A stretch of DNA of 22,753 bases from a virus (Duplodnaviria; Heunggongvirae; Uroviricota; Caudoviricetes): IMG/VR virus record IMGVR_UViG_2526164651_000008, positions 1-22,753 of that record; one strand, 5' to 3'. The notes under the pieces are model-generated. The model made no database searches, was not told where the DNA came from, and worked only from the letters and a program-made list of their open reading frames with translations. The position numbers were made by a program, and so were the translations under genes. This document shows, piece by piece, positions 9,201-18,525 of this stretch (position 1 is its first letter; the number at the start of each line of letters is the position of its first letter).

Positions 9201-9692
9201 CAGATACTGCGAAGTGGTTTTGCCCTTAATGGTGATGTCTTTTTCCGTCACCCAGCCACCGTTACGCTGTATCTGAACCAGCAGGCGGACTTCCGACGGA
9301 TTCCGGTCCCCCTTTGAGGTGGTTTCCACCAGTGCCTGCACACCGAAGGTCAGGCGCAGACGATCAATGTTTGCCGACGTGATGGTCCGGGTGATCGGCG
9401 TGTCGTATTTCACTTCCGTACCCAGCACCGTCTCGGAGCCGGAAGATTCAACCCCCTCCGGCGGTGTCTGCTCCTGCTCGCCGGCGCGGAACACTACCGT
9501 AACACCGGAAAAGTTTGTCTTCCCCTCGCTGTCCAGGACCGGCGTACCGTTCAGCAGCACGCTTTTTAATCCATCCACCGGACCGTCAACCGCCCCTTCG
9601 CTGATGGCATCAATCACACTCAGCAACTGCGTGGATTTCAGGTTGTCCTTCGCTTCGCGCGGGGTATGCCCCTTACTGCTGCCTTTACCCAT
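6217..9692 (-). pseudogene. J: Tail tip / host specificity protein J, interrupted by a frameshift near 6991-7000
   Basis: The 930-aa N-terminal ORF ([33 protein letters not shown]...) is J-like. It leaves frame after ...[11 protein letters not shown] and runs into a junk tail; the 268-aa ORF in another frame resumes with ...[46 protein letters not shown]..., the J C-terminal domain. Confidence 0.85.
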
Positions 9693-9752
9693 TCCTCACG
9701 CTCCATAAACGACAAAACCGCCCGCAGGCGGTTTCACATAAAACATTTTGCA

Positions 9753-10394
9753 TCAGCGACCAATCACCACAACCTGACCACCATCCCCTTCGTCTGCCGT
9801 GCTGATCTCCTGAGAAACCACACGTGACCCCACGCGCATTTCACCGTACAGAACGGGCAGAACATTGCCCTGGGCAACCATGTTATCCAGTGACGAGAAA
9901 TACGTGTTCTGCTTACCGTTATCCGTTGTCTGTGTACGGGGAGTTCTGGCTTTCGGTGCCAGCATCTGTGCAACACCGCCAAGCGTCATACTGGCACCGA
10001 GAGAAAACAGCAGATTACTCGCCATAATTCCTACCCCCGGCATCCATATAGCAACCGCCATAACAGCCGCCCCCAGCACCGCCTGAAACACACCGCCACT
10101 TTTAGCTCCCACCAGACGCGGTACTATGTGGATCACTGCACCATTTGCCAGCGGCTCATTAAGACGGGCAGACAATTCGGTTTCACCTGCATCACGCCCG
10201 GCAATGCGCACCTGATACCAGCCGTCACTCAGTTTCTGACGAAACGCCGGGAGCTGTGTGGCCAGTGCCCGGATGGCTTCAGCCCCCGTTTTCACACGAA
10301 GGTCGATGCGGCGACCAAATCGTTGTAAATCCCCGTAAAGGCAGATGCGCGCCATGCCCGGTGACGCCAGAGGGAGTGTGTGCGTCGCTGCCAT
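9753..10394 (-). CDS. I: Tail assembly protein I
   Basis: 213-aa ORF starting MAATHTLPLASPGMARICLYGDLQRFGRRIDLRVKTGAEAIRALATQLPAF..., matching lambda gpI as I recall it. Confidence 0.85.
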   Translation of the reverse strand: MAATHTLPLASPGMARICLYGDLQRFGRRIDLRVKTGAEAIRALATQLPAFRQKLSDGWYQVRIAGRDAGETELSARLNEPLANGAVIHIVPRLVGAKSGGVFQAVLGAAVMAVAIWMPGVGIMASNLLFSLGASMTLGGVAQMLAPKARTPRTQTTDNGKQNTYFSSLDNMVAQGNVLPVLYGEMRVGSRVVSQEISTADEGDGGQVVVIGR

Positions 10395-11035
10395 TTGTCG
10401 GTGTACCGCTCTCGTTTGCTCAGTTGTTCAGGAATATGGTGCAGCAGCCCGCCGTCACCGCAGTAAATGGCGGCATGATTCGGCACCGATGAACCAAAAC
10501 AGCACAGCAGCACATCGCCCGGCTGCGCCTCTGTCAGTGCGACACGGTAAAAACCCGTCACCTCCATATTGTCAAGATAGAGATTCTGACCGTTACGCCA
10601 CCAGTCATCCCCGCGATGAAAATCCGGCATCTCAATCCCCGCCAGATGATAAGCATCCCGGAACAGCGTGTAACAGTCCGTCACCCCGTGCTCAAAGCGC
10701 CGCCCGGTGAGATGCGGCACACAGCGGAATTTATGAATCTCACCCCGGCAGACCAGCCACCAAGGCAAATCACTCTGCACCTGCAGCCGCCGGTCAGCCT
10801 CACTCAGCCAGGGCAGACCACCGGGATGACTGTGGACCAGCGCCACAATCTCACCCAGCATTTGTGCCCGCAGCCAGTCCTCCGGAGCCATCCGGAACCG
10901 TTCCTCCGGCTCACCGGAGATATTCTCGCTGGGAAGATACCTGTCTCCCTCCGGCGTTCTCACCACGAAGCCACACGACTCCGCTGGCGCACATCGCCGG
11001 GCGTGCGCCAGAATCGCTGATTCTGTCTGTGTCAT
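10292..11035 (-). CDS. K: Tail assembly protein K (MPN/JAMM plus NlpC/P60-like), with a probable aberrant C-terminal extension overlapping I
   Basis: Starts at the internal Met (MTQTESAILAHARRCAPAESCGF...) of the 335-aa ORF. HSHPGG (JAMM) and DCYTLF...HAAIY (NlpC/P60 Cys/His) motifs are present. The last ~40 residues (R/W/H-rich) overlap the I start by 103 nt and look like out-of-frame read-through. Confidence 0.75.
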   Translation of the reverse strand: MTQTESAILAHARRCAPAESCGFVVRTPEGDRYLPSENISGEPEERFRMAPEDWLRAQMLGEIVALVHSHPGGLPWLSEADRRLQVQSDLPWWLVCRGEIHKFRCVPHLTGRRFEHGVTDCYTLFRDAYHLAGIEMPDFHRGDDWWRNGQNLYLDNMEVTGFYRVALTEAQPGDVLLCCFGSSVPNHAAIYCGDGGLLHHIPEQLSKRERYTDKWQRRTHSLWRHRAWRASAFTGIYNDLVAASTFV

Positions 11036-11039
11036 GGAT

Positions 11040-11738
11040 TTACTGAGAAAGTTTATTGATGGAAAGGAAACCGCCGAAATTACCGGTATTGTTGCGCAAC
11101 TCACACCCGCGCATACACTTGCTGCATTTGTCCTTCCGGATATCCGTCGTTGGTTTGTCGAACTCGTCAGCCACTGCCCTGCCCGTGTAACCACACTCAT
11201 CAGAACGGTAAGTCCACATACAGGTATTCGCCAGCATGATACGCCCCGGGAAAACCGCGCCATCCGTCTCCGTTGGTGTGGCCAGCACAAAAGAGGCACT
11301 GACCGCGCTCAGTTCGCTGCACTGCTCGATGCGCCAGCGGCTGATCACCTCCTGTTCCGGATCGGCGTCGCTGTTTCCGTTGACGAAGTTCACCGCATCC
11401 AGAAAACGGGCGTAAACCTTACGCCTGACCACCGTTCCGCCGACCAGACTCTGCAGATCTTCCGCCATACCGGTGACCATGCCGTGCAGGTTAGAGACCG
11501 TCAGTGTCGGACGGGCAGCACAGCCCCTGCCGTTCAGTTCAAACCCCGACCCCTGAATGGGGTATGCCTGATACTGCCGCCCCTGCCAGGTGACCGGCTC
11601 ACCTTTTTCGTTCTGCTCATTACAGAAAAAATAACGCTCACCACCGACCTCTGTCAGATCGATTTCCCAGAGCTCCACCCGGGCTGACTGCTCCGCACGG
11701 GTGCATTCATTCAGTGTTTCCTGCCGGATATCCTGCAT
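11040..11738 (-). CDS. L: Minor tail protein L
   Basis: 232-aa ORF, MQDIRQETLNECTRAEQSARVELWEIDLTEVGGERYFFCNEQNEKGEPVTWQGRQYQ..., collinear with lambda gpL. Confidence 0.9.
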   Translation of the reverse strand: MQDIRQETLNECTRAEQSARVELWEIDLTEVGGERYFFCNEQNEKGEPVTWQGRQYQAYPIQGSGFELNGRGCAARPTLTVSNLHGMVTGMAEDLQSLVGGTVVRRKVYARFLDAVNFVNGNSDADPEQEVISRWRIEQCSELSAVSASFVLATPTETDGAVFPGRIMLANTCMWTYRSDECGYTGRAVADEFDKPTTDIRKDKCSKCMRGCELRNNTGNFGGFLSINKLSQ

Positions 11739-12068
11739 CAGTTCACCACCTGTTCAAAATCGGCCGTTACAGTCACCCATAACGCCCCCACGCTTGCCGA
11801 CCATTTACGACAAACCACCCTTGATCGGTTTCCAGTCATAAGGTGGCGTCCACTGAAATGCGCGGACGCCACCGTGCCGTTCCAGAAAGGCTTTTAAAGA
11901 TGGGTGTTCACCTTTACGAACACGTATCGTCACGCTGTAAGTCGACAACTGGTTATTCAGTCCCGCCGCACGACGCTGTTCATAACCATCGCCCAGCTTC
12001 ACTGTCACCACTTTCGGCTCTGATACCACATTCATATCCGGGCGCACTTTCCAGTGAAACGTCTCCAT
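11738..12068 (-). pseudogene. M: Minor tail protein M with a 1-nt frameshift in a G run
   Basis: METFHWKVRPDMNVVSEPKVVTVKLGDGYEQRRAAGLNNQLSTYSVTIRVRKG...TPPYDWKPIK matches lambda gpM, then stops early. The adjacent frame continues ...VVCRKWSASVGALWVTVTADFEQVVN with a TGATG stop/start overlap onto L. The indel maps to the CCC run at 11818-11820. Confidence 0.75.
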
Positions 12069-15044
12069 TACCGGTATGCTCCACTTAACCGGCCACCATC
12101 ACGGGCCTGCTGTTGCATAAAGTCCGCGGCCGCTTTTTTCCCGAGGTCATAAACCACCTTCAGGGCAGCCGGACCTATCTGCCCGTTCGTGCCGTCGTTA
12201 TTGATCTCAATGTTGTACTGCGGGGCAAACATCACCATGCCTGAACCACCAGTATCCGCCACAACCCCCAGCTTACCATCAGCACCGCGACGCAGTGGCA
12301 GAATGGCTTCAGGTCCCGCTTCCCCCATCACACCCGCGCCTTTTGCAAAAGCAAAAAACGTCGGACGGTTAACCACCGTGCCACTGTAGCGACTCAAATC
12401 AGCAGACTGGTAAACACCGCCATCAGCATTAGTCGTGAAGCCGAATAAAGAACCGACGCCCTTTACCGCCTGCATCATGGCCATCTGTGCCATAATTCTG
12501 GCCATATCTGACAACAGGGAAGAGGTGAAGGATTTAAAATTCAGCTTACCGGTGGTACAGAATGTCGCCAGTGCATTACCGGCACTGCTGAATGCCACTG
12601 TAAACATCTGTTCTGCCGTTCCCGCCGCATTATCCGCATCCGCCGTAAAATTCTGAAACGCCCGCATGGCACCGTTTTTCCAGTCGCCCTGCGCCACTTC
12701 CAGTTCCTGCCAGTAGCGTTTGTTTTCATTCAGTTGTCGCTTCAGGCTCCCCTTCAGCACCTCCTCAGCCCTCCGGTAGTCCTCCGTCCCGTAAGTGCCT
12801 TTCTGGCGACTGTCATTCTCAAGCTGTTGCAACTGTTGCCGGTATTCCTGCCGGATGCGCAACTGTGCCTGGTAGCGCTGCCGCTGCTTATCCCCCATAC
12901 CTGCAGTGGCAATATCCAGATTGTGCTGCTCACGCAGTGCACGTTCTTTGTCTGCCAGCTGGCTGGTCAGCTGAACCGTTTTTTTCTCAGGTCGTTAAGC
13001 GCTGTCTGTTTCTGCAGCTCCTGCTGTTTCACATCCAGCAGCGTCAGCGCCTGAATCAGCTCATTCTTACGGGCCAGCACACTCTTTTCATCTGCCGTCA
13101 GCTTTTTCCCGTCCAGGTCGCTGATGCGCTGCTGCAGGGCCAGAAGCTGTTTATGCGCTTCAGTCATCCTTTCAGTGGCAATGCCTGCTGACTGTCTGGC
13201 AGCAGCAATCTGCCCTTCCACCTGTGCCTGCTGCTGACTGTACTGCAGCAATAACCGGGTGGCCTCATCATTACGGGTTGCCCGTGTATTTTTCTTAATG
13301 GCTTTTTCGTAACGTTCATTTTCACGCTGTATCGCCGCATCCCTGACAGCCTGGTCGGCGTACTGCATGGCATTAATACGCGCAATTTCCCGCTGATGTC
13401 GTGCAGCTCCCGTTTCATTCATCCGGTTCAGCGCGGCATTTTCAGCATTCCGGCGTTTTTTCTCCTGAAGATCGTTAAGACGCTGCTGATCGTACTCCAC
13501 CTGTGTGGAGGCGTTTGTCCACGGATATTTTTTCGCGCGCTGAATTTTTTCCTGTAACGCATCAATCTGCGCATCCAGCGAGTCTTCACGACCAATATTC
13601 ATGGCCGCATCCCAGAACTGCTTCCACCAGTCAGACAAGGTTTGCAGCGTACTACCCAGCGCATTGAGATTATTATCAATATCAGATGTGCGTTTACCGG
13701 TTTCCTCTGCCAGCGCAGACATGGCGATCCGGGCCGCATCACTGGACCGCCCCTGCTCCCCAAGGACGCGTATCTGCTCAAGCTGAGTGGCAGTCAAAAA
13801 ATGCAGCGCATTGTCCAGCGCCTTCGCGGCATTTACAGGATCATCCTTCAGCCGCTTAAACTGATTTATGGTATCGCTGACCGACTGGCCAACCGATCGC
13901 TCCATCTGTGCGGCAGCTTTCGCCACCATACCAATATCGTTTCCATGAAATGCCCCACTGCCCACCACCTGTGCCAGCGCACCGGCTGCCGCATGTTGCG
14001 TGATACCATTCCCGGATATGGCCCGGCTGAGTTTCCACAACTGCCCGACAGTGACACCGGCATAATGTCCCGTCAGCGCCAGCTGACGGTTAAATTCCTC
14101 GCCCTCCTTCCGCCGTCATGCCAGGCTTTACCCAGACCCAGGACCGCCGCGACAAGTCCGCCAATAACGCCGCCAGTCATCATGCCTTTCGGCGACATCT
14201 GTGCGCCTGTCCATCCGGCACGGTTAGCCAGCGTTATCCCGGATCCCCTCAGCGCACCAAAATTGCCGCGCGCCATCTGACTGATTAACACCCCCAGCTC
14301 CCGCCGGGCTGCCGCACTTTTCAGCCCCAGCGAATGTGTGGCTTTTCCTGCCCGCTCCATTTTGCGGATATACACTTCTGCAGCACTGCTTACCCCCAGC
14401 TGAGCCGCCCTGGCGCGAAGCAACTCAGAAGACGACAGATTCTGGCGGGTTGCCTGCTCTTTAAGCTGGCGGATAAACGCCGCTTTCTGCCGGGTGGCCT
14501 GTTCCTCTGCCTGCGTCAGGGCACGGGTTTTCGCCGTGATCTCCGAAATCAGCGCCAGATAATCCTGCTGACCAACCCCGCCACTGTTTCTGGCCTGTCG
14601 GATCTGCTGCTGAATACGCTGTAATTCCTGAAGCCCCGCACCGGCCTGTTTCACACTGTCAATCTGGCGATAAAAGGCGGCAGCCGCTTTATCCTGCGCC
14701 TCCGCCAGTGCCCTGGCCTGCGCCTGTTCCTCGCGCATTTTCTGATTCAGGGCATCCACGCGCAGACGGGTTTGTTCCACCTCACGGGCCATGCGTTCAT
14801 GAGCCCGTGCATTCTTCTCCACCGTCTGCGCATGGGCTGATGCTGCTGTTGCAGCCGAAGAAGCCGCCTGCATTGTCTGCCGGGCCGCCTGAGTCTGACG
14901 CTCCATAAAACGCTGCATACGGGCAGAAGACCGTTCTGCATCGCTGGCTGCACCATTCAGAAGGTTTTTGATACGGGGAATTTCATTTTTAAACTCTGCC
15001 GCATCAATCCCCAAATCAATGACCAGGTTGGCTATCTGGTCCAT
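12068..15044 (-). pseudogene. H: Tail tape measure protein H, split into three ORFs by two frameshifts
   Basis: N-terminal ORF (MDQIANLVIDLGIDAAEF...), middle ORF and C-terminal ORF (...INNDGTNGQIGPAALKVVYDLGKKAAADFMQQQARDGGRLSGAYR, an H-type C-terminus) are collinear once the frame is changed near 14101-14113 and at the T7 run 12979-12985. The middle portion is coiled-coil rich. Confidence 0.8.
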
Positions 15045-15345
15045 AACGCACACCTCCGGAAATACCTTCCCCAAGATGCATCAGTTCTTCGTCCGTTCGC
15101 TCCGGTATCCCGTTCTCTTCCGGTAAAAGGCTGAAATCAGCCACCGCAGCATCGATGCTGCCGGACACCATTCTCACGATCAATGCCTTCAGCGAGGCAA
15201 ACTGCGCATCCATCCACACATCACTGAAGCTCTGCATCCGGAAATAATCGCCCCACTCACCAAGCTCAGTGGCCGACATATCCGACAGCATCCGCCGCCA
15301 GTCTGCCCGCCGGAACTCCCGGGCAAGCCGCATGACAAACTGCAT
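15016..15345 (-). CDS. T: T-frame portion of the G-T tail assembly chaperone (expressed by -1 frameshift from G)
   Basis: 109-aa ORF in the -1 frame relative to G. It is open upstream across the G stop, overlaps the G 3' end, and sits directly upstream of H, the conserved lambda G/GT arrangement. Confidence 0.6.
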   Translation of the reverse strand: MQFVMRLAREFRRADWRRMLSDMSATELGEWGDYFRMQSFSDVWMDAQFASLKALIVRMVSGSIDAAVADFSLLPEENGIPERTDEELMHLGEGISGGVRYGPDSQPGH

Positions 15346-15353
15346 TTCCCGCG

Positions 15354-15664
15354 TCAGGACTTTTCCGGCGTCAGCGCCTCATGATCATCATCCCCGGCAT
15401 TCTCAATGGTCCCCATACCGCTCAGCGACAGAACCCTCTCCGCCCCCGTGCCCAGCGCATCATACGACCATGTTGTCATAATGGATGCGCAAAGCGTCTC
15501 AACATCCTGAGACTGCTCAGCATTCCACAGTGAGCGGGAAACCAGCCAGGCATTGATATCCATTCCCATACGCAGAAAAGCAATCTGTCGTTCAGCCTCC
15601 GGCAGTTCTCCCTCCTGTGCATCAAACTTTGCCGTTCGCTGCTGAACAAACGTCAGATATTCAA
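15354..15664 (-). pseudogene. G: Tail assembly chaperone G, 5'-truncated by IS600
   Basis: The ORF on the minus strand abuts the IS600 end at 15665; its apparent ATG (15680) lies inside the IS terminal repeat. Position immediately upstream of T/H identifies it as G. Confidence 0.6.
15360..15366 (-). other. Candidate G-T -1 programmed frameshift heptamer GGAAAAG (variant of lambda GGGAAAG)
   Basis: In the G frame the sequence reads CCG GAA AAG TCC TGA; the -1 frame is open from upstream through the T ORF. The heptamer differs from the lambda slippery site by one base. Confidence 0.35.
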
Positions 15665-15707
15665 TGAGGTGTACTGGCAATAGCGGACACTACCATTTGT
15701 TCTTTTT

Positions 15708-16526
15708 TTAAGCAGCCATCTGATGATATTTTTCCCTGAAGGCTGCCGGGGAGATATTCCCCAGACGAGAGTGACGACGCTGACGATTGTAGAAAATCTC
15801 AATGTATTCCCGTATTACTGAGATGGCTTCATCCCGGTTATTAAAACGATAGTGGCTCAGGCTCTCATTTTTCAGCGTTCCCCAGAAGCTTTCCATCGGA
15901 GCGTTGTCGTAACAGTTACCTTTACGCGACATTGATGTTTTCAGACCAAACTGCTCCTGTATGACCCGGTAATCGTATGCGCAGTACTGTGAACCTCGAT
16001 CAGAGTGGTGGATTAGCCCGGCAGGTGGGCGCTGGCTCCTGAGCGCCATAAACAGGGCTTTACCTGTCAGCTCTTTTGTCATGCGCTCTCCCATGGCGTA
16101 GCCGACAATTTCACACGTATAAACATCTTTGATGCCAGCGAGGTACAACCATCCCTCCTGTGTGGCAACATACGTCAGGTCCGCCACCCAGACCTGATTT
16201 GGTGCTGTAGGAGCGAACGTCTGGTTCAGCAGATTTGGCGCAACTGGCAGATTGTGGTTCGGGTTCGTAGTCGCTCTGAACTTGCGTTTCTGCTTACAGC
16301 GTAGCCTTAGCTCCTTACGAAGACGTGCCAGTCGGTCACGACCAACGATGATGCCATTCTCTGCCAGCTCCGTCTGGAGCCGCCGGGTTCCATATGTTTC
16401 GCGAGTGCGGATATGTGCCACCTTAATCTCCAGTTTTAGCCGCTCATCATTTTGTTTTCTGTCTGAGGGTTCATGCTGTACCCAGTTGTAATAACCGCTC
16501 CTGGATACACCAAATACCTGACACAT
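15708..16526 (-). CDS. IS600 OrfB transposase (DDE integrase domain)
   Basis: 272-aa ORF with an IS3-family catalytic core (...[14 protein letters not shown]...NAPMESFWGTLKNE...). Confidence 0.85.
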   Translation of the reverse strand: MCQVFGVSRSGYYNWVQHEPSDRKQNDERLKLEIKVAHIRTRETYGTRRLQTELAENGIIVGRDRLARLRKELRLRCKQKRKFRATTNPNHNLPVAPNLLNQTFAPTAPNQVWVADLTYVATQEGWLYLAGIKDVYTCEIVGYAMGERMTKELTGKALFMALRSQRPPAGLIHHSDRGSQYCAYDYRVIQEQFGLKTSMSRKGNCYDNAPMESFWGTLKNESLSHYRFNNRDEAISVIREYIEIFYNRQRRHSRLGNISPAAFREKYHQMAA

Positions 16527-16561
16527 CGCTTCAATGGGAAATTGTTGTCGCCATTGTTCGA

Positions 16562-16864
16562 TTAACGCGTATTTTTCAGCGACTCCTGTGCAAAATACGC
16601 TGTTGCTTTTTTTAATATATCTCGCTCAAGGCGAGCTTCATTTAACGCCTTACGCAGTTGCAGAATTTCAGATTCCAGTTCAGCCACCGTGCGGGAACCA
16701 GGAGTACCGAGCCCTTTTCTGGCGGCGGTAACCCATTGTCCTAAAGTGCCTTCAGGAAGGGATAATCGGGAAGCGCCTTCACTGATCGAAAGTTGATTTT
16801 CAAGAACCGTTCTGACAGCTTCGGCTTTGAACTCTTTAGAGTAACGTTGGGTTTTTCTGCTCAT
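16562..16864 (-). CDS. IS600 OrfA (helix-turn-helix and leucine zipper)
   Basis: 100-aa ORF MSRKTQRYSKEFKAEAVRTVLENQLSISEGASRLSLPEGTLGQWV...; it ends shortly after the A7G frameshift window that leads into orfB. Confidence 0.85.
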   Translation of the reverse strand: MSRKTQRYSKEFKAEAVRTVLENQLSISEGASRLSLPEGTLGQWVTAARKGLGTPGSRTVAELESEILQLRKALNEARLERDILKKATAYFAQESLKNTR

Positions 16865-16928
16865 TATTAGCTCCTTCTGATGCCATTCTATTTCAGGAAG
16901 GAGTGTCCGTTAAACTCAGGCTACCTCA

Positions 16929-17067
16929 ATATGGTACCCGCGCTTCGGGAACTGATGCAGGCGAAGCATCGCGCACAGAAAGCAGTAGATGAGCTGGTGG
17001 ACTGTGTGGCAGAGCTGGAAACCAGAGTCGGAAAGTTTGAAAAACTGGTGCAGGAGGTGCTGCGCTG
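16929..17067 (+). pseudogene. 3' fragment of a phage nin-region gene truncated by IS600
   Basis: Open frame ...VPALRELMQAKHRAQKAVDELVDCVAELETRVGKFEKLVQEVLR* begins at the IS600 boundary. Its stop overlaps the rusA ATG (TGATG). Confidence 0.45.
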
Positions 17068-17427
17068 ATGCGCCATGAGTTTATTTTACCTTATCCGCCG
17101 ACGGTGAATACTTACTGGCGACGTCGTGGCAGCACATATTTTGTATCAAAAGCCGGTGAGCGTTATCGTCGGGATGTGGCGCTTATTGTCCGTCAGCAGT
17201 GACTGAAATTAAGCCTGTCCGGAAGACTGGCGATAAAGATTATTGCAGAGCCACCGGATAAGCGGCGTCGTGACCTGGACAATATCCTGAAAGCACCACT
17301 GGATGCACTGACACATGCGGGGTTGCTTATCGACGACGAGCAGTTTGATGAAACCAATATTGTGCGCGGACTGCCTGTTCCTGGTGGTCGGTTGGGGATA
17401 AAAATCACAGAGCTGGAGTGTGCATGA
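17067..17427 (+). pseudogene. rusA: RusA-like Holliday junction resolvase with a +1 frameshift and an in-frame TGA
   Basis: MRHEFILPYPP, then an extra A at about 17100 shifts the frame; the shifted frame reads TVNTYWRRRGSTYFVSKAGERYRRDVALIVRQQ, then TGA (17200-17202), then LKLSLSGRLAIKIIAEPPDKRRRDLDNILKAPLDALTHAGLLIDDEQFDETNIVRGLPVPGGRLGIKITELECA. The DKRRRDLDN and GGRL segments are RusA-like. Confidence 0.7.
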
Positions 17428-18113
17428 ATAACCAGTATTTACAGTTTGTTCGTGAGCAGCTCATTATCGCCACCGCTGATTTGAGTGGGGCGACAAAAGG
17501 TCAGCTTGAAGCCTGGCAGGAGAATGCCATGTTCGATACAGGGCGTTACAGGCGTAAAAAAATCCGGTACCGCGATGAGGTGACCGGAAAAATGATAACG
17601 CGGGATAATCCACCAATCCCGGGAAAACAATCACTGGCGAAGGGGGCGTCAATTCCTCTGGTCAGTCAGGTTGCGTTTTCGACATCATCGTGGCGGCGGG
17701 CTGTTCTGTCTCTTGAAGAGCACCATAAAGCCTGGTTGTTGTGGTGTTACAGCGGAAGTATTTGCTGGGAGTATCAGATCACCATAACCCACTGGGCGTG
17801 GGAAGAGTTTAAGGCTCATTCTGGCACTAGGAAAATTGCAGAGAAAACACAGGAACGCCTGAAAAAATTAATCTGGCTGGCGGCGCAGGCGGTAAAAGCA
17901 GAACTTTTTGGTGGGGAAGGTTATGAATATCAGGAGCTGGCATTACTGGCGGGAGTAACAACCAAAAACTGGTCCAAAACATTTACTGGTCACTGGGTTG
18001 TAATGAAACACATTTTTCACCGACTGGATAGTGAGGCTTTATTGTTTGTGATGAGAACACGTTCAGAACAAAAAGCGGCATTTTCAAAGCAAAGTATTGC
18101 AAAAGTAGATTAA
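17424..18113 (+). CDS. Putative late-gene antiterminator (Q-like), assigned by position
   Basis: 230-aa ORF whose ATG overlaps the rusA stop (ATGA). It sits between rusA and the tRNA array, where lambdoid phages encode Q. I do not recognise the sequence itself. Confidence 0.45.
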   Translation: MNNQYLQFVREQLIIATADLSGATKGQLEAWQENAMFDTGRYRRKKIRYRDEVTGKMITRDNPPIPGKQSLAKGASIPLVSQVAFSTSSWRRAVLSLEEHHKAWLLWCYSGSICWEYQITITHWAWEEFKAHSGTRKIAEKTQERLKKLIWLAAQAVKAELFGGEGYEYQELALLAGVTTKNWSKTFTGHWVVMKHIFHRLDSEALLFVMRTRSEQKAAFSKQSIAKVD

Positions 18114-18176
18114 AAGGCATATATTTCATGCAAATCTGATACTTTGCCGATTTTGTACGCGATGGCAAAGTAAGCA

Positions 18177-18202
18177 AAACCCGCCGCCGAGCGGTTTTTT
18201 TA
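18177..18202 (+). terminator. Terminator-like element (short GC hairpin plus T7) between the Q-like gene and the tRNA array; possible tR' equivalent
   Basis: AAAACCCGCCGCCGAGCGGTTTTTTT: a CCGC/GCGG stem with a 6-nt loop, flanked by an A tract and seven T. Confidence 0.4.
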
Positions 18203-18289
18203 TGCCTGAAAAATGGCACAGGACGTTAAACGTGCTGGTGGTCAGATGAGTTTGCAGATGTGATGACATATGGTTATTATTCTGCCTCC

Positions 18290-18366
18290 GGCCCTTTAGC
18301 TCAGTTGGTCAGAGCGAGCGACTCATAATCGCCAGGTCGCTGGTTCAAGTCCAGCAAGGGCCACCA
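18290..18366 (+). tRNA. tRNA-Ile2 (anticodon CAT, ileX/ileZ-like; reads AUA after lysidine modification)
   Basis: GGCCCTTTAGCTCAG...CGACTCATAATCG...GGTTCAAGTCCAGCAAGGGCCACCA. Cloverleaf with U8, GCTC/GAGC D stem, CTCATAA anticodon loop, TTCAAGT T loop and encoded CCA. Very similar to E. coli ileX as I recall it. Confidence 0.85.
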
Positions 18367-18367
18367 A

Positions 18368-18444
18368 CCACCACTAGCTCATCCGGATAGAGCATCAACC
18401 TTCTAAGTTGACGGTGCGAGGTTCGAGTCCTCGGTGGTGGGCCA
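18368..18444 (+). tRNA. tRNA-Arg (anticodon TCT, reads AGA)
   Basis: CCACCACTAGCTCATCCGGATAGAGCATCAACCTTCTAAGTTGACGGTGCGAGGTTCGAGTCCTCGGTGGTGGGCCA: 7-bp acceptor stem, anticodon loop CTTCTAA, T loop TTCGAGT, encoded CCA. It starts 1 nt after the previous tRNA. Confidence 0.85.
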
Positions 18445-18446
18445 GC

Positions 18447-18522
<76 letters not shown>

Positions 18523-18525
18523 TAT

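Follow-up and report, generated by a model that had tools for sequence, protein, structure and literature searches.

Has the Holliday junction resolvase gene rusA in this prophage DNA (22,753 nt, referred to throughout as the window) been decaying under two independent lesions, or has it been interrupted once? The initial annotation, made from the raw sequence, had placed a +1 frameshift, caused by an extra A near 17100, ahead of an in-frame TGA in the shifted frame, and had taken the two together as a sign of relaxed selection in a cryptic prophage. The window matches the final 22,753 nt of AFGY01000037.1 (assembly GCA_000213735.2) at 100 % identity; a published strain table (PMC6397287) lists this assembly as Shigella flexneri K-227. 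It is very probable that rusA of this strain is a recent pseudogene, created by one C>T substitution that changed Arg45 to a stop, and that a true truncation of the gene is present in this strain only.

Reading frame and identity of rusA

The gene under study is:

17068..17427, + strand, rusA pseudogene (single-frame translation, Pfam RusA, PDB 1Q8R, gapless alignment to intact homologues)

Read in one frame, this region translates as MRHEFILPYPPTVNTYWRRRGSTYFVSKAGERYRRDVALIVRQQ*LKLSLSGRLAIKIIAEPPDKRRRDLDNILKAPLDALTHAGLLIDDEQFDETNIVRGLPVPGGRLGIKITELECA*, which is 120 codons: 44 sense codons, then the TGA at 17200-17202, then a further 74 sense codons closed by the TGA at 17425-17427. The ATG at 17068 overlaps the stop of the preceding ORF as TGATG; the extent first given for the gene, 17067-17427, is thus correct at its end and off by one at its start.

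With the premature stop entered as X or R, the translation matches Pfam RusA (PF05866) in one stretch over aa 8-107 and profile positions 1-115 of 124 (E=2.8e-15, 57.5 bits; gathering score cut-off 22.8 bits) and E. coli RusA (PDB 1Q8R) without gaps over residues 4-116 (E=5.4e-23). Both matches span the stop, and the gene is a member of the RusA family, as had been proposed. It is not an uninterrupted ORF of about 120 codons, due to the TGA at codon 45.

The RusA of E. coli K-12, encoded in the DLP12 prophage (PDB 1Q8R, 2H8C), is of near-equal length (120 aa, against 119 aa for the window) and shares approximately 40 % identity with the conceptual translation, end to end and gap-free. Each gene is found a short way upstream of the late regulator Q, in a lambdoid prophage that is defective. 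Unlike that of K-12, the window gene has a nonsense codon at position 45, and it falls within a sub-lineage of O157 and EIEC prophages (87-94 % nucleotide identity) rather than being the DLP12 allele.

Recognisable RusA sequence is present in the same frame on both sides of 17100 and on both sides of the TGA. Alignment to intact rusA homologues, which had been suggested as a check on the two lesions, shows TGA against CGA or CGG and no indel. Against rusA as annotated, and intact, in E. coli TD225-C4 (93.6 % identity) and O157:H7 Gim1-1, the 360 nt align without indel, and none is seen within the gene in comparisons with five intact homologues and with eight loci carrying the same allele; gaps are confined to the outermost ends, 5′ and 3′, of two phage genes whose termini differ. 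Around 17100 the window reads CCGCCGACGGTGAATACTTACTGG and the homologues read CCGCC[G/A]ACGGTGAA[C/T]AC[C/T]TACTGG, with substitutions only and no extra A. Since the RusA homology is held in a single frame and the alignments are gapless, the frameshift does not exist: no indel moves the homology into another frame, and rusA carries one lesion, not two. Long-term decay of rusA, with the TGA and a +1 frameshift near 17100 as separate lesions, has nothing in its favour and is virtually ruled out by one frame that holds the homology from residue 4 to residue 116 and by the lack of any indel in the comparisons just described.

The premature stop and intact alleles of the gene

The remaining lesion is:

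17200..17202, + strand, premature stop TGA, codon 45; T replaces C of CGA (Arg45) at 17200

The reading frame bears out the in-frame TGA of the initial annotation, which falls at codon 45. For comparison, the exact Q protein of the window was looked up, giving ten loci, and the rusA genes of these were compared base by base. Codon 45 is CGA or CGG (Arg) in all eight other same-allele loci, as it is in five more distant intact homologues, and an uninterrupted 119-aa RusA is encoded at eight out of eight. In S. flexneri 89-141 (CP026803.1, L009) and in two undegraded phage contigs (L014 and L017), the sole difference in rusA is at 17200, where the window has T and these have C. The loci of J17B (L008), record UGYT01 (L010), 2850-71 (L012), and K-272 (L013), together with L015, have C at 17200 and one other substitution each.

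Four S. flexneri strains, 89-141, K-272, 2850-71, and J17B, also share the IS600, rusA, Q, tRNA, and ISEc20 context of the window. Their rusA genes encode 119 aa and have 0-1 further DNA differences from the window; C at 17200 gives Arg45 in these strains, whereas T gives a stop in K-227. The intact Shigella protein is titled 'MULTISPECIES: RusA family crossover junction endodeoxyribonuclease [Shigella]'. A transition from C to T at 17200, changing codon 45 from CGA (Arg) to TGA, would account for the K-227 allele.

Over 6,690 bp, K-227 and 89-141 differ by one substitution, that at 17200, and by three T-homopolymer lengths. The latter are differences of one base each from the finished 89-141 genome, at 18194, 19238, and 20733, and are probably due to the sequencing chemistry behind one or other assembly.

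Source strain and rarity of the truncated allele

The product of the interrupted frame has been deposited as a protein:

17068..17202, + strand, truncated 44-aa ORF (GenBank EGK36370.1)

The entry is titled 'crossover junction endodeoxyribonuclease rusA [Shigella flexneri K-227]' and corresponds exactly to the 44-aa product. The same product was found on three contigs, these being the K-227 contig, L006, and the Logan assembly of run SRR059822, and the intact 119-aa protein on at least 1000 contigs with Shigella and Shigella flexneri names. In L006, the 44-aa product is an artefact of the contig end, the last base being the ancestral C. Among the contigs found, the true 44-aa truncation is present only in K-227 and in the one read-run assembly. 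A 27-mer scan for the TGA allele in species-representative genomes gave no match. A 19-mer scan for the allele gave six places in representative genomes and one in IMG/VR, none of them homologous to the window; by our own estimate, about four matches to a 19-mer are expected by chance in 596 Gb.

The main doubt left is whether rusA of K-227 is really intact, with the T at 17200 an error of base calling or consensus in the draft assembly of 2011; this is unlikely. Such an error would explain why the T allele is unique to this assembly, against a CGA version on at least 1000 contigs, and the draft does differ from the finished sister genome at the three T-homopolymers within 6.7 kb, where the error could be in either. 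However, the separate SRR059822 assembly is identical to the window over 1217 nt, T included. The T has therefore been reproduced from reads by a second assembler, although the run is possibly K-227's own reads and the independence of this confirmation is not assured. In addition, no homopolymer surrounds the change (CAGCAG[T/C]GACTG), and it is a substitution, unlike the indels at the other three sites. A genuine nonsense substitution in K-227 is therefore preferred.

Predicted consequence for the RusA protein

In E. coli RusA, the critical residues are D70, D72, K76, and D90/D91, for catalysis and Mg2+ binding, and R69, for DNA binding (PMC1636454). Their equivalents in the window, from the 1Q8R alignment with an offset of +1, are D69, D71, K75, D89/D90, and R68, all of which are downstream of codon 45. 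These residues, R68 included, are present and invariant in an alignment of six sequences, and all the catalytic residues of K-12 RusA are kept in the conceptual translation of the window. Translation of the K-227 gene would end after 44 residues, ahead of the Mg2+-binding and catalytic residues, leaving no active Holliday-junction resolvase. Because the stop is upstream of all of the catalytic residues, the 44-aa peptide is, judged from the sequence, almost certainly without resolvase activity. The first in-frame ATG, GTG, or TTG after the premature stop is a TTG at 17323, from which a 34-aa C-terminal piece without D69, D71, and K75 would be made.

The base after the premature stop is C. In E. 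coli, UGA followed by C is a poor terminator, a leaky context, and it is conceivable that traces of full-length RusA are made by read-through of the UGA-C. That the UGA is decoded, whether by near-cognate Trp read-through or as selenocysteine, to give a functional full-length RusA is a different proposition and a very unlikely one. Along with the poorly terminating context, it could draw on the unblemished state of the rest of the rusA frame and on a hairpin 16 nt downstream that folds better than shuffled sequence (z=-2.7). However, the codon is CGA or CGG (Arg) in every relative, with no conservation of UGA, and read-through of a few per cent in a gene that is probably untranscribed is unlikely to matter. 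The CGA alleles carry the same hairpin sequence, therefore it is not a dedicated recoding signal, and no Rfam family matches at the hairpin. A SECIS element or programmed recoding of the UGA was rejected as a candidate for these reasons. Truncation at codon 45, with loss of the resolvase, is the reading that is retained.

IS600 and the junction upstream of rusA

Upstream of rusA are an insertion sequence and the remnant of another gene:

15665..16928, - strand, IS600, IS3 family, 1264 bp (orfA 16562-16864, orfB 15708-16526; identity to RefSeq elements)

16931..17068, + strand, 45-codon 3′ remnant of the 80-aa gene preceding rusA (compared with L014)

The insertion sequence is 99.4 % identical to the RefSeq 'IS3-like element IS600 family transposase' and has imperfect terminal repeats, with ends TGAGGT...GGACACT, which were read by eye, the inverted-repeat finder having missed them. 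Its length of approximately 1.26 kb, terminal inverted repeats, orfA and orfB, and near-identity to annotated IS600 identify it as IS600. There is no 3-bp target duplication at this copy; the flanking triplets differ (caa and ata), and it therefore marks the junction of a rearrangement, not the site of a simple insertion. Its left edge cuts the tail chaperone gene G (- strand) and its right edge cuts the 80-aa gene (+ strand). The full 80-aa ORF is present in L014, where homology to the window begins at 16929; in the window, the 5′ part of the gene is gone at the IS600 junction and the stop that overlaps the rusA ATG is kept. In J17B and UGYT01, a Band_7 gene is found to the left of this IS600 instead. 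This different neighbour shows that there has been further IS-mediated shuffling, with the IS600 copy having been a breakpoint more than once.

IS600 separates rusA and Q from any early phage promoter, and a consensus scan of 16865-17068 found no outward-facing (+) promoter-like site, the only site there pointing into the IS. Since IS600 cuts rusA off from the phage early promoter in the sister strains as well, the 'inactivation' of rusA in K-227 may have no phenotype.

The quiescent rusA of E. coli K-12 is activated by insertion of IS2 or IS10 upstream (PMC1636454). The window is like these K-12 alleles, rus-1 and rus-2, in that an IS is close upstream of a prophage rusA, with IS600 ending 139 bp before the ATG. 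Unlike the activated alleles, it has no outward promoter-like site that could be found, and the K-227 gene is broken anyway. By analogy with IS2 and IS10, IS600 might drive the intact rusA of most S. flexneri, making K-227 a natural or leaky knock-out, but this is extremely unlikely. If true, S. flexneri would have a second active Holliday-junction resolvase and K-227 would have a measurable recombination or repair phenotype.

Q, the tRNA genes, and the ISEc20-like element

Downstream of rusA are:

17424..18113, + strand, late-gene antiterminator Q, 229 aa, intact (Pfam PF06323)

18290..18600, + strand, phage tRNA array Met(CAT), Arg(TCT), Thr(TGT), Gly(TCC) (ARAGORN, Rfam tRNA)

19243..20727, - strand, ISEc20-like IS110-family element, transposase 19298-20494 (99 % identical to annotated elements)

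An intact Q-like gene with an ATG overlapping the rusA stop had been described here, and this is correct. The Q protein matches PF06323 over profile positions 1-217 of 220 (E=1.6e-89, 299.8 bits), and an identical copy is present in 108 blocks of the collection. Its ATG at 17424-17426 overlaps the rusA stop as ATGA, with GGAG 5 nt upstream of the ATG. In K-227, 222 nt, from the premature stop to the start of Q, would be left untranslated. The ATGA coupling would thereby be lost, possibly with a polar effect on Q.

A promoter-like TTGCAA-17-TATATT is present at the end of Q, with a GC-rich hairpin and T-run (18183-18203) about 60 nt further on. In its sequence, this layout (18097-18203, + strand), just ahead of the tRNA genes, resembles a pR′/tR′ late-promoter and terminator pair for Q. 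Three of the four tRNA genes in the window, tRNA-Met, -Thr, and -Gly, are annotated after Q in phage vB_EcoM-606R7. The first, at 18290-18366, is called as Met(CAT) by ARAGORN, and RefSeq has a tRNA-Ile at the matching place downstream of Q in an O157:H7 prophage; the window gene may be a lysidine-modified tRNA-Ile2 rather than a tRNA-Met. The 640 bp from tRNA-Gly to the IS (18601-19242) have no match to phage vB_EcoM-606R7.

Relatives that are 99 % identical to the next element are annotated 'IS110-like element ISEc20 family transposase'. It takes the place expected for the lysis, terminase, portal, and capsid genes, directly before FI/FII/Z′ (Pfam neighbours). Downstream of FI and FII, the tail gene Z is truncated by a second partial IS600 (21729-22078), which shares 98.9 % identity with 15660-16008 over a match that takes in 5 nt of flank. 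A further IS3-family transposase fragment (22472-22753) runs off the end of the contig.

Order of events and selection on rusA

The scar made up of IS600, rusA, Q, the tRNA genes, and ISEc20 is found with CGA kept at five other loci, in 89-141, K-272, 2850-71, J17B, and record UGYT01. Because these five scar-sharing loci keep CGA, the nonsense mutation is younger than the scar, which gives a relative timing for the loss of rusA. The IS600 and ISEc20 insertions, by which the prophage would have been immobilised, and the loss of the replication, lysis, and head genes would have come first, and the nonsense mutation later.

With the frameshift nonexistent, the argument from two lesions in 360 bp to relaxed selection falls; the single C>T is the only substitution in 6.69 kb relative to 89-141. 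One SNP is informative on selection in neither direction. Nor does the intact rusA frame of the sister strains speak for purifying selection, since the genomes are near-identical across the region and decay has had little time to set in. A priori, relaxed selection on a stranded rusA is plausible.

The correct record for the gene is a rusA pseudogene carrying a single nonsense substitution (Arg45 to stop), not a frameshifted gene, and GenBank EGK36370.1, as a genuine 44-aa 'rusA' protein, is a wrong annotation. Alignment is needed to check lesions that have been read by eye in raw sequence; one of the two here was imaginary. This is an ordinary strain-private pseudogene, within known biology, and adds to the cases of gene loss still under way in the IS-ridden prophage remnants of Shigella.

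Defects of the prophage outside rusA

The prophage is cryptic, as had been suggested, but it is the inserted IS elements, the missing modules, and the damage to tail genes that support this, not rusA. Genes for replication, lysis, terminase, portal, or capsid are absent from the window. The replication and recombination module on which selection was said to be relaxed does not remain either; rusA and Q form an island of approximately 1.2 kb, cut off from the early region by the IS600 at 15665-16928. The lambda-like tail module (3498-15680, - strand) is 98.4-99.6 % identical to the intact orthologous prophage of EIEC strain VL46, against which the following lesions in tail genes were scored:

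3992, tail-fibre gene (DUF4376), 1-bp deletion in an A8 run

~6991, J (gpJ), 4-bp deletion

~11821, M (gpM), 1-bp insertion

12978, tape measure gene H, 1-bp deletion

13447, tape measure gene H, 63-bp deletion

14111, tape measure gene H, 1-bp deletion

Due to the IS600 and ISEc20 insertions, the missing modules, and the frameshifted J, M, H, and tail-fibre genes, the prophage is clearly defective, on evidence that is all outside rusA. The tail lesions in homopolymers could be sequencing errors of the draft; the 4-bp and 63-bp deletions belong to a different class.

The tail end of the prophage carries an intact gene for an ipaH-type T3SS E3 ubiquitin-ligase effector (1675-3318, + strand, 547 aa), the orthologue of which is annotated IpaHe in EIEC. 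Judging by the predicted product, the remnant still holds virulence cargo. Beside this gene, 1368-1547 (- strand) and 408-611 (- strand) give Rfam matches to the Shigella sRNA CssrB (230 bits) and to IS009 (129 bits), respectively.
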